From a virus (lineage: Duplodnaviria > Heunggongvirae > Uroviricota > Caudoviricetes): a stretch of DNA of 5,192 nucleotides. The notes beneath the pieces are model-generated. The model had not been told where the DNA came from. It searched no databases and worked only from the letters and a program-made list of their open reading frames with translations. Of the stretch, positions 468 to 2,285 are shown piece after piece; position 1 is the stretch's first letter, and every line of letters begins with the position of its first letter. A program made the position numbers and the translations under genes. The stretch is taken from the IMG/VR virus record IMGVR_UViG_2778261277_000011; one strand, given 5' to 3'.

Positions 468-506
468 ATGCGGCACTCCTGGTTAAATTTCATTTTTCGC
501 GGGTAT

Positions 507-566
507 AAAAAAACGATGGGGCGGGCAGTCCGGAAGACGTCAGGTCACAGAGATTTGACCCGCCCC
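507..566 (-). other. Structured GC-rich element between HNH and terS: 8-bp inverted repeat GGGGCGGG (518..525) / CCCGCCCC (559..566) with a nested GGTCA/TGACC repeat (543..547 / 556..560), followed on the minus strand by a T7 run (507..513); candidate cos/packaging site or terminator
   Basis: Inverted repeats read directly from the sequence. In HK97-like phages cos lies between the HNH gene and terS (established knowledge); assigning that role here is inference. Confidence 0.35.
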
Positions 567-592
567 TCCCCTCTGGCAGTGGGAACTGGTTC

Positions 593-943: not shown

Positions 944-969
944 TGGACACTATCGTTGCTTATGTTTAT

Positions 970-994
970 AAAAAAAGCCCTGCTTACGCAGGGC
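970..994 (-). terminator. Intrinsic terminator for minus-strand transcripts, downstream of the 76-aa cargo ORF
   Basis: Perfect 7-bp stem GCCCTGC (977..983) / GCAGGGC (988..994) with 4-nt loop, followed on the minus strand by a T7 run (plus-strand A-run 970..976). Confidence 0.6.
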
Positions 995-1022
995 ATAAAA
1001 ACTCAATATTGATACTATGAAT

Positions 1023-1253
1023 CTATTCCAAATCCCAACGTGGAATATTTATTATCTTACCAGGAGTTAAGGAAAATTTGGCTTTCTTCAATATCTCAAC
1101 ATTAGCATCATCAGGAATCACTAAGAAGTACGAATAGTGCATTTCTCCAGAATTCCCATGATTCTCCTGAATATCATCTTCGCTAACTCCCGACGCTTCA
1201 AGCTCATCAACTGTGAGTCCTAAATAATCAGCTAGCTTTTGTATATCAATCAT
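1023..1253 (-). CDS. Hypothetical small acidic protein (76 aa) in AT-rich cargo island; function unknown
   Basis: ATG at 1253..1251 with GAGGTG 4 nt upstream (strong SD); ORF MIDIQKLADYLGLTVDELEASGVSEDD...; about 15 D/E residues; low GC compared with flanking phage genes; followed by an intrinsic terminator. Confidence 0.5.
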   Translation of the reverse strand: MIDIQKLADYLGLTVDELEASGVSEDDIQENHGNSGEMHYSYFLVIPDDANVEILKKAKFSLTPGKIINIPRWDLE

Positions 1254-1552
1254 TAATCACCTCACATATCAACGATGAGGCATCATCATCACACACTCTA
1301 GCAAAAGCTTCAACTTATTGTTATTATTAAAATAATTCTATACAAATTACATCTAATGTATATCCTATGATACGACAGGTGCGAATATTAATGACAAACA
1401 ACCATCGTATTTCTCTGAAAAATGGCAAGTATCACTCATTATTCCCCATGCATCTATGTACTCTGTTCATGGTCAAGCCATAACTATATTTAATGCAAGA
1501 ATACGGAAAGTTAAACAAATAAACGTTGATACACTAACATTCCACAAACTAG

Positions 1553-1846
1553 TTATACTAATGAAGTAGGCAATTCTTCCTCTGAAATTCCCAATACTCT
1601 CATATCGGCCCGCAATTCTGCTATAGCGCACACTTCACTATAAGATGGTGCGGACTTCTCAGGATAAAGTACATACTCAAAATGCGGCGGAGGATTAAAT
1701 ATTAAAACCGAATACCCAGCTTCTTGAAGGATATTTTGGACGATTGAATAATAAGGTCTACGCTCATCAAACCAATAACATCCATTCCTTTCTATTGACG
1801 CGATTGCTTTTTTTGCGTGCTTCTTATAAACCCATGCCTTATCCAT
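1553..1846 (-). CDS. Hypothetical protein (97 aa) in AT-rich cargo island; function unknown
   Basis: ATG-initiated ORF MDKAWVYKKHAKKAIASIERNGCYWFDERRPYY...; no recognisable motif; weak SD (AGGA only 1 nt from the ATG); low-GC context; perfect minus-strand TATAAT (plus 1974..1979) and paired TACGTA palindromes lie upstream. Confidence 0.45.
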   Translation of the reverse strand: MDKAWVYKKHAKKAIASIERNGCYWFDERRPYYSIVQNILQEAGYSVLIFNPPPHFEYVLYPEKSAPSYSEVCAIAELRADMRVLGISEEELPTSLV

Positions 1847-1994
1847 ATCCTGTCAAAAATCTCCCTACGTAATTGAACAATAACACTACGTAGTAGTCAT
1901 ACACCAGAATATCTAACATATCAATCCAGCAACATTTAATTATTTTAACTTAATATGAAAAAGTCTTCAGTGATTATAATTTCACACCTATATA

Positions 1995-2285
1995 TCAATT
2001 CAGTAACTTTTCAGAGCCTGTGGCCAGTCTTTGGACACGCTGTTGTTGGACAATAGCTCGAATATGAGACTTGTCCGTATTACATTGCCCTAATGCAGAT
2101 AACAAGCTCGCATTTAAGTTGAGACTTGCACCATACGTCAGAGGGTCTGGTATGAGCGGTATAGGTGTTTCAGAAATCAAACTAGTTGGTAGTGGTGTAA
2201 CCGGAGTGCTCACGTAAACTGTCCGCGTACTTCCGCAACCGGTCAGCAGCGGCAGCAGGCACAGCACGTGAAGCGCAATCATCAT
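1995..2285 (-). CDS. Rz1: Rz1-type o-spanin (outer-membrane lipoprotein), overlapping the 3' end of Rz in another frame
   Basis: Start at the internal Met pair (2285..2283 / 2282..2280) of track ORF 1995..2453: MMIALHVLCLLPLLTGC with lipobox LTGC, then a proline-rich mature domain (TPVTPLPTSLISETPIPLIPDP); begins inside Rz and extends past the Rz stop. Confidence 0.7.
   Translation of the reverse strand: MMIALHVLCLLPLLTGCGSTRTVYVSTPVTPLPTSLISETPIPLIPDPLTYGASLNLNASLLSALGQCNTDKSHIRAIVQQQRVQRLATGSEKLLN

Follow-up and report, generated by a model that had tools for sequence, protein, structure and literature searches.

The window, that is, the whole stretch of DNA that was analysed, comprises 5,192 nucleotides of a virus assigned to Caudoviricetes. 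All of its genes lie on the minus strand, in the order DNA methyltransferase (4490 to 3438), holin, endolysin, Rz/Rz1, an AT-rich insert with two small open reading frames (ORFs), HNH endonuclease, an intergenic region, and terS. The HNH gene (943 to 593, minus strand) encodes a protein of 116 amino acids with an N-terminal zinc ribbon (CxxxxC...CxxH) and a match to the Pfam HNH family (E=2e-16). The terS gene (467 to 1, minus strand) runs off the edge of the window after the first 155 of its 164 codons and encodes a small terminase subunit of the P27 family, which matches Pfam Terminase_4 (E=2e-21). The intergenic region between these two genes (592 to 468, minus strand) is 125 nt long, and a promoter scan found no sigma-70-like promoter for terS in 468-592. 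Four complete Escherichia coli genomes carry a prophage that is 99.2-99.9% identical to the whole window. In that prophage the RefSeq annotation gives the order antiterminator, methyltransferase, holin, lysozyme, Rz/Rz1, HNH, "phage terminase small subunit P27 family", and terL, the last of which lies beyond the window directly after terS. The source genome has intact terS, terL, HNH, and lysis genes. The intergenic region thus occupies the location of a cohesive-end (cos) site, between an HNH gene and a P27-family terS that is followed by terL.

The AT-rich insert between Rz/Rz1 and the HNH gene is about 1 kb long (window 950-2000) and has a GC content of 31-40% versus 52-60% in its flanks. 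It contains two hypothetical ORFs on the minus strand, 1253 to 1023 (76 amino acids) and 1846 to 1553 (97 amino acids), together with its own strong terminator at 994-977 and a promoter-like site at 1362-1335. The 76-residue ORF matches phrog_31861 (function unknown), and searches of both ORFs with Pfam and PADLOC gave no match. Phage SfV is without this insert, and its HNH gene directly follows Rz1. Of 5426 E. coli genomes, only 4 match the window over its whole length; in the next best, the match falls into two pieces and amounts to 78% of the window. The insert looks like a moron of unknown function.

The first-pass annotation had singled out positions 507-592 as a candidate cos site on the strength of several features, all of which lie at the stated coordinates. 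These are a perfect 8-bp inverted repeat with a 33-nt spacer, its arms being GGGGCGGG (518-525) and CCCGCCCC (559-566); a GGTCA/TGACC pair (543-547 and 556-560); and an A7 run at 507-513, which is T7 on the minus strand. The evidence that the region is a cos site comes from relatives in which the genome ends have been mapped.

The closest relatives of this locus are the Shigella flexneri phages SfV, SfI, SfII, and SfIV. In a megablast search of phage records, positions 1-534 aligned with the left ends of SfV (99.6% identity) and SfIV (98.5% identity), and the HNH gene with the sequence up to 535 matched the right ends of the same two records. Across the record ends of all four phages the identity is 95-99.6%, and it reaches 100% for the right end of SfI. 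When the last bases of the SfV record (...GTGACCTGACGTCT) are followed by its first bases (TCCGGACTGCCCGCCCC...), the exact sequence of the window across 535|534 is obtained. In the window, therefore, the right and left genome ends are joined to each other, as had been anticipated for the case that the region is cos.

The cut positions themselves are provided by SfI, in which run-off sequencing of virion DNA from both termini left a 10-nt gap, 5'-TGCCCGCCCC-3', that was taken as cos (PMC3636060). This 10-mer is present without change and in the same flanking context at 527 to 518 on the minus strand of the window, where it consists of one arm of the inverted repeat plus CA, and the SfI record accordingly ends at window position 518 and starts at 517. 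The cos of SfIV has been reported as identical to those of SfI, SfII, and SfV (PMC3851460). In the SfII genome announcement, cos is given as bp 59-125 of the record, equivalent to window 534 to 468, the 67 bp from the split of the SfV record to the start of terS. The point at which the GenBank records of SfV and SfIV begin and end is 7 nt upstream of the SfI 10-mer (534|535 versus 527..518), and the published end assignments within this family are therefore not fully consistent.

More distant phages place their ends in the same aligned columns. The record of the Stx2e phage phiP27 (AJ298298) annotates a 10-bp "cos-site", CGCCCGCCCC, in the columns of the window 10-mer. The record of Edwardsiella phage EPP-1 ends with ...GGGTAAATCT, 23 nt, and TGCCCGCCTC, starts in the column of window position 517, and has both ends exactly on the predicted boundaries; its sequence was corrected and its ends were set with PhageTerm (PMC11043334). 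The HK97 record ends with ...ATCAAATCT (TCAAATCT), followed by 23 nt and the 10-nt CGCCGCCAAA. The comparison with defined cos sites of HK97-family phages that had been suggested for this locus thus returns the same block, the same spacing, and the same geometry of a 10-nt end. Taken together, these data identify the region, with a probability of about 0.93, as the cos packaging site of an SfV/SfI/phiP27-type temperate phage integrated in E. coli, and bear out the earlier proposal for the HNH-terS intergenic region. The identification of this cos is already known, the element is common, and its cut positions have been mapped experimentally in close relatives. The position and sequence of the cohesive end are shown by those experiments on near-identical phages; the material at hand is prophage sequence, and the prophage could be defective. 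Exact genome ends can be transferred from SfI to this locus, which helps to define both prophage and virion coordinates.

The anatomy of the site was derived from comparison with viral contigs in IMG/VR. A first pattern scan (GGGTCAAATC-N{40,55}-ACCCGCGAAA) yielded at least 120 contigs. The pattern allowed 40-55 nt between the two blocks, yet they lie 47 nt apart in 119 of the 123 matches listed and 46 nt apart in the other four. The resulting alignment of 59 unique rows of 142 nt shows a constant order of elements: a variable stretch after the HNH stop codon, a near-invariant GGGGAGGGGCGGGTCAAATC, a variable spacer, the 10-mer, the T-run, and a conserved ACCCGCGAAAAATGAAAT. A second scan with the upstream block alone (GGNNNGGGGNGGRTCAAATC) also returned at least 120 contigs, which gave 100 unique rows, 44 with the downstream block ACCCGCGAAA and 56 without it. 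The dinucleotide AC directly precedes the 10-mer in 42 of the 44 rows with the downstream block and in 41 of the 56 rows without it. Among the latter, the tetranucleotide at the boundary is ACCG in 40, and most others have GAC|CG or GAC|TG shifted by 1-2 nt. The genes downstream in these 56 rows mostly encode diverged Terminase_4 proteins and in one case a Terminase_7 protein; HK97-type rows have gp1, which belongs to no Pfam family.

On this basis the whole cos region extends over 486..573 on the minus strand and comprises the upstream block, the spacer, the 10-mer, and the T-run with ACCCGCGAAAAATGAAA. The upstream block, (GA)GGGGAGGGGCGGGTCAAATC, occupies 552..573 (core 571 to 552, minus strand), ends 24 nt before the 10-mer, and contains the other arm of the inverted repeat. 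It is near-invariant in the 59 unique rows, and the sequence just upstream of it varies. At least 120 IMG/VR contigs carry it, followed by several different sequences downstream, and HK97 has it at the same distance. The spacer (528..551, minus strand) has a fixed length of 24 nt and a variable sequence that ends in AC (529-528), and it holds TGACC, as read on the minus strand, and the junction 535|534 of the SfV record. Two adjacent 6-bp palindromes, TCCGGA (529-534) and GACGTC (536-541), lie in this spacer just upstream of the 10-mer; since both are kept in close relatives and absent from diverged ones, they are probably incidental. The 10-mer TGCCCGCCCC (518..527, minus strand), the equivalent of cosN, is defined by the SfI gap and the phiP27, EPP-1, and HK97 columns. 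Downstream of the cut, at +5 to +27, lies the element TTTTTTTATACCCGCGAAAAATG (491..513, minus strand), which includes the T-run (513 to 507) and ACCCGCGAAAAA (504 to 493) and falls partly outside the interval 507-592 of the first-pass annotation. This element is conserved in all loci with the TerS subtype of the window, and the variants GACCGCGAAA and GCCCGCGAAA occur in rows not selected for it.

The inverted repeat noted in the earlier reading does not withstand this comparison. When the 125-nt intergenic region was shuffled 2000 times with its dinucleotides preserved, 149 of the shuffled sequences (7.5%) had a perfect inverted repeat of at least 8 bp with a spacer of 3-60 nt, and the whole window holds six distinct repeats of this kind where 5.3 +/- 2.6 are expected. 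The fold z-scores of the sense strand are -0.38 as RNA and -0.53 as DNA. In close relatives the GGTCA/TGACC pair gives way to the non-pairing CTGCGGCC, CTGCAGCC, or CTGTACCC. In diverged relatives the 10-mer becomes CCGCCGCCTT, CGCCACCTTG, or CGAGCCCTCA, and CGCCGCCAAA in HK97, and the 8-bp repeat is lost; the G-rich upstream block is unchanged, and the complementarity is therefore not maintained. Being at chance level and not conserved, the inverted repeat is not the functional feature of the region. What is non-random here is the conservation of the sequence, as the upstream-block pattern matches the window once versus 0.01 matches expected.

These results also bear on the alternative explanations of the region. 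The repeat and the T-run could act as a Rho-independent terminator, or form some other RNA structure, where the HNH/lysis transcript ends, as there is a G/C-rich 8-bp stem followed after 4 nt by U7 on the sense strand. A consensus terminator scan, however, found none at 507-592, yet it detected the canonical one at 994-977 upstream of the HNH gene. The 33-nt "loop" is far beyond the 3-8 nt of terminator geometry, the T-run starts only after a gap of 4 nt, folding as RNA gives the z-score of -0.38 noted above, and Rfam gave no relevant match. The pairing of the stem is lost in relatives without compensating changes, and late transcription must read through this point into terS and terL. With scan, geometry, folds, and Rfam all against it, the terminator was rejected, and we consider this explanation highly improbable. 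The same repeat could be a symmetric protein-binding site or a cruciform that the terminase recognizes as a dyad, a role implied by the term "structured" element in the first-pass annotation; its arms flank a spacer, one of them is the cohesive end, and in phage lambda cosN has partial twofold symmetry. Such a role is very unlikely given the frequency of comparable repeats in the shuffled sequences. In addition, the upstream arm is invariant but the cohesive-end arm varies (CCGCCGCCTT and CGAGCCCTCA in diverged relatives, CGCCGCCAAA in HK97) without covariation, and the arms are offset from the cut positions rather than centred on them.

A further alternative takes the region to be a remnant in a defective prophage, or a pac-type (headful) start, at which no fixed ends are generated. 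It draws on the fact that only prophage DNA is at hand and that many E. coli prophages are defective. The intact terS, terL, HNH, and lysis genes of the source genome speak against it, as do the 100% identity of the 10-mer with the mapped 10-mer of SfI, the intact flanking blocks, and the membership of the terminase in the cos-type HK97/P27 family, and this explanation is highly improbable.

The 10-nt end is probably a 3' overhang, as suggested by homology with HK97 and by the wording of the SfI report, which speaks of a "gap"; no explicit mention of the polarity was found for SfI. A 10-nt gap in both run-off reads is the outcome expected of recessed 5' ends, that is, 3' overhangs; 5' overhangs would leave the 10-mer in both reads. 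The left-edge boundary of the 10-mer follows from the SfI, EPP-1, phiP27, and HK97 mapping; the right-edge boundary is that at which the SfI record ends (518) and starts (517), and the first bases of the EPP-1 and HK97 records align there as well. With this polarity, the nick at the left edge would fall at 527..528 on the plus strand, 5'-GGGGCGGGCA|GTCC-3' (CA^GT), and the nick at the right edge would fall at 517..518 on the minus strand, between CCCC (518) and A (517), which makes 517 the first base of the left end.

The division of labor between two nucleases has been suggested before, the HNH protein making one nick and TerL the other (PMC11331095; PMC12967558). The plus-strand nick sequence would be CA^GT in the window and CG^GT in phiP27, HK97, and most relatives (40 of the 56 rows without the downstream block). 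Zinc-ribbon HNH nickases encoded beside cos in phages gamma and GVE2 have a measured specificity for CG^GT (AC^CG), and CA^GT is a star site (PMC3592412). The HNH protein of the window aligns with the GVE2 HNH structure (PDB 5H0M; E=5e-12) over residues 1-114, its full length including the N-terminal CxxxxC...CxxH ribbon, and shares 38% identity over 65 amino acids with the catalytic core of HK97 gp74. In most relatives the predicted left boundary reads AC|YG, in agreement with the CG^GT specificity of these homologous zinc-ribbon HNH nickases, and we infer that HNH nicks at CA^GT and TerL at the other edge. HK97 gp74 and the Skunavirus HNH protein have been reported to be non-specific on their own (PMC3592412; PMC12967558), so a sequence-specific HNH nick may not hold; the zinc ribbon is absent from HK97 gp74 (PMC3592412). 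The match between AC|CG and the nickase specificity provides a concrete, testable assignment of both cos nicks to HNH and TerL.

By analogy with HK97, ACCCGCGAAAAA together with the T-run is a candidate TerS binding site, the equivalent of cosB. HK97 TerS binds +15 to +29, which comprises CTAACCCG and an A-tract; Arg128 reads the C:G pair at position 21, and the adjacent A-tract is recognized by its shape (PMC11331095). The +1 of that study is position 1 of the HK97 record, as T16, C:G21, and A:T24-29 agree. The window has ACCCGCG followed by AAAAA at +14 to +25, and HK97 has ACCCG followed by ATTTTTTTA at +18 to +31. The large subunits are of one type, the SfV TerL being 26% identical to HK97 TerL (gp2) over about 520 amino acids (E=4e-31). 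For the small subunit, neither BLASTP nor hhalign found similarity of the P27-family TerS to HK97 gp1, and the Foldseek match was not significant; the transfer of the HK97 TerS-DNA model is therefore tentative. The TerS of the window and HK97 gp1 both start with MA...R7-S8 despite having no overall sequence similarity, and P27-family TerS proteins have an invariant S141-R142 at the start of the C-terminal helix that recalls Ser127-Arg128 of HK97. R7 and R142 likewise recall the Arg7/Arg128 "arginine clamp" of HK97 TerS.

The upstream block stands out in that it is invariant and at a fixed distance from the cut in loci whose TerS subtype and downstream sequence differ and whose TerL and HNH proteins are homologous. 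In phage lambda, cosQ lies upstream of cosN and is needed for termination of packaging. The upstream block corresponds by position to lambda cosQ, and we propose for it a comparable role in termination or in docking of the nucleases. The arrangement GG..GGGG.GG(G/A)TCAAATC, about 22 nt, and AC|CG is conserved across the TerS subfamilies Terminase_4, Terminase_7, and HK97 gp1; the loci that carry the block include window 552-573 (minus strand), about 707-723 of the HK97 locus (L129), and the IMG/VR loci L133-L196. Searches of the literature with the motif strings led to unrelated papers, and no published mention of the upstream-block motif was found in the literature searched. Of all the parts of this analysis, only the upstream block and the AC|CG boundary may go beyond published knowledge. 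They could reflect a cos "grammar", not described before, that HK97, P27/SfV, and other families with HNH-dependent packaging have in common, and in which the block GG..GGGG.GG(G/A)TCAAATC, about 22 nt, and AC|CG would follow one another, the block would be a cosQ-like signal for TerL-HNH, and the AC^CG specificity of HNH would set the left edge of the 3' overhang. We advance this generalization tentatively and hold it to be possible but rather doubtful. If true, it would answer why such terminases need a second nuclease and which strand gets cut.

A mechanism can be outlined in which these elements act together. In the prophage the virion ends are joined, and the late operon runs from the lysis genes through HNH and cos to terS and terL. 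On concatemeric DNA, the P27-family TerS would bind the downstream element and position the HK97-type TerL. The zinc-ribbon HNH protein would then nick the plus strand at CA^GT, at the left edge of the 10-mer, and TerL would nick the gene-sense (minus) strand at its right edge. The products would be 10-nt 3' cohesive ends, and packaging would proceed rightwards from terS and end at the next cos. The upstream block would serve as a termination or nuclease-positioning (TerL/HNH docking) element, similar to cosQ of lambda.

The extent of the functional unit is indicated by elements that share the site without its neighbors. Four contigs (L038, L048, L061, and L090) have the same cos without an adjacent HNH or terS gene. 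In L038 and L061 it adjoins clpS-clpA. Genes for Nu1-like, DUF1441, or TerL proteins (TerL in L090) and for a conserved protein of about 95 amino acids lie upstream in these four contigs. In all four, similarity to the window is confined to the stretch from the G-rich block to GAAAAATG(AAA), about 85 bp. A cos shared in this way delimits the minimal site, and these boundaries mark roughly window 572 to 486 as the functional unit. The satellite-like (or remnant) elements may be satellites packaged by SfV/P27-type helper phages. A 90-bp stretch of the window, 486-575, is present in 1058 of 5426 complete E. coli genomes, or about one in five, where it is unannotated.

Among known systems, the phages SfV, SfI, SfII, and SfIV are the nearest to the window, having the same 10-mer TGCCCGCCCC, the same flanking blocks and gene order, and 95-100% identity over the HNH-cos-terS junction. 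The window differs from them in being an E. coli prophage rather than a Shigella phage and in carrying the AT-rich insert of about 1 kb that SfV lacks. Phage phiP27 has the same architecture and spacing, a P27-family TerS, and a 116-residue HNH protein, and its 10-mer differs by one base (CGCCCGCCCC). Its spacer and the vicinity of its terS start differ from those of the window, and the identity over the 142-nt region is about 55%.

In contrast to these close relatives, lambda is related in logic rather than in sequence. Its cos (cosQ-cosN-cosB) has the same three-part organization, with a downstream small-terminase site beside the small-terminase gene and a G/C-rich end. In lambda, however, the overhang is 5', cosN has the 12-nt sequence GGGCGGCGACCT, the terminase is Nu1/gpA, and no HNH protein takes part. 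The window has a Terminase_4 TerS, an HNH neighbor of the obligatory type, a 10-mer that is probably a 3' overhang, and no sequence homology with lambda; its TerS has no match to Phage_Nu1, and GGGCGGCGACCT is absent from the intergenic sequence. The resemblance to lambda cosN that had been noted in the first-pass annotation is thus reduced to G/C richness, since both the terminase type and the end differ. With a TerS other than Nu1, a different sequence, and a probable 3' overhang, the cos of the window is not of the lambda type.

The wider group to which the site belongs is that of HK97, in which TerS is gp1, TerL is gp2, and HNH is gp74. The HK97 HNH gene also lies beside cos and terS, and the TerL proteins are homologous. 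A G-run and TCAAATCT lie 23 nt before a 10-nt end that is preceded by GAC, and ACCCG with an A/T tract follows the cut at a distance of 14-30 nt, both as in the window. HK97 has 10-nt 3' overhangs (PMC9410871; PMC11331095), and its cleavage is stimulated by HNH gp74 (PMC9410871). The differences from HK97 are the 10-mer (CGCCGCCAAA), a TerS without detectable sequence similarity, a gp74 that has no N-terminal zinc ribbon, and an HNH-cos distance of about 320 bp in HK97 versus 65 bp in the window. The HNH protein of the window may be one of the zinc-ribbon HNH nickases (N.phiGamma/GVE2; Group 1 of Xu and Gupta); it has the ribbon plus HNH architecture and aligns over its full length with 5H0M, and CA^GT or CG^GT is found at the position of the proposed nick. 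The cos of the window is a member of the SfV/SfI/phiP27 cos family within HK97-like, HNH-dependent packaging.
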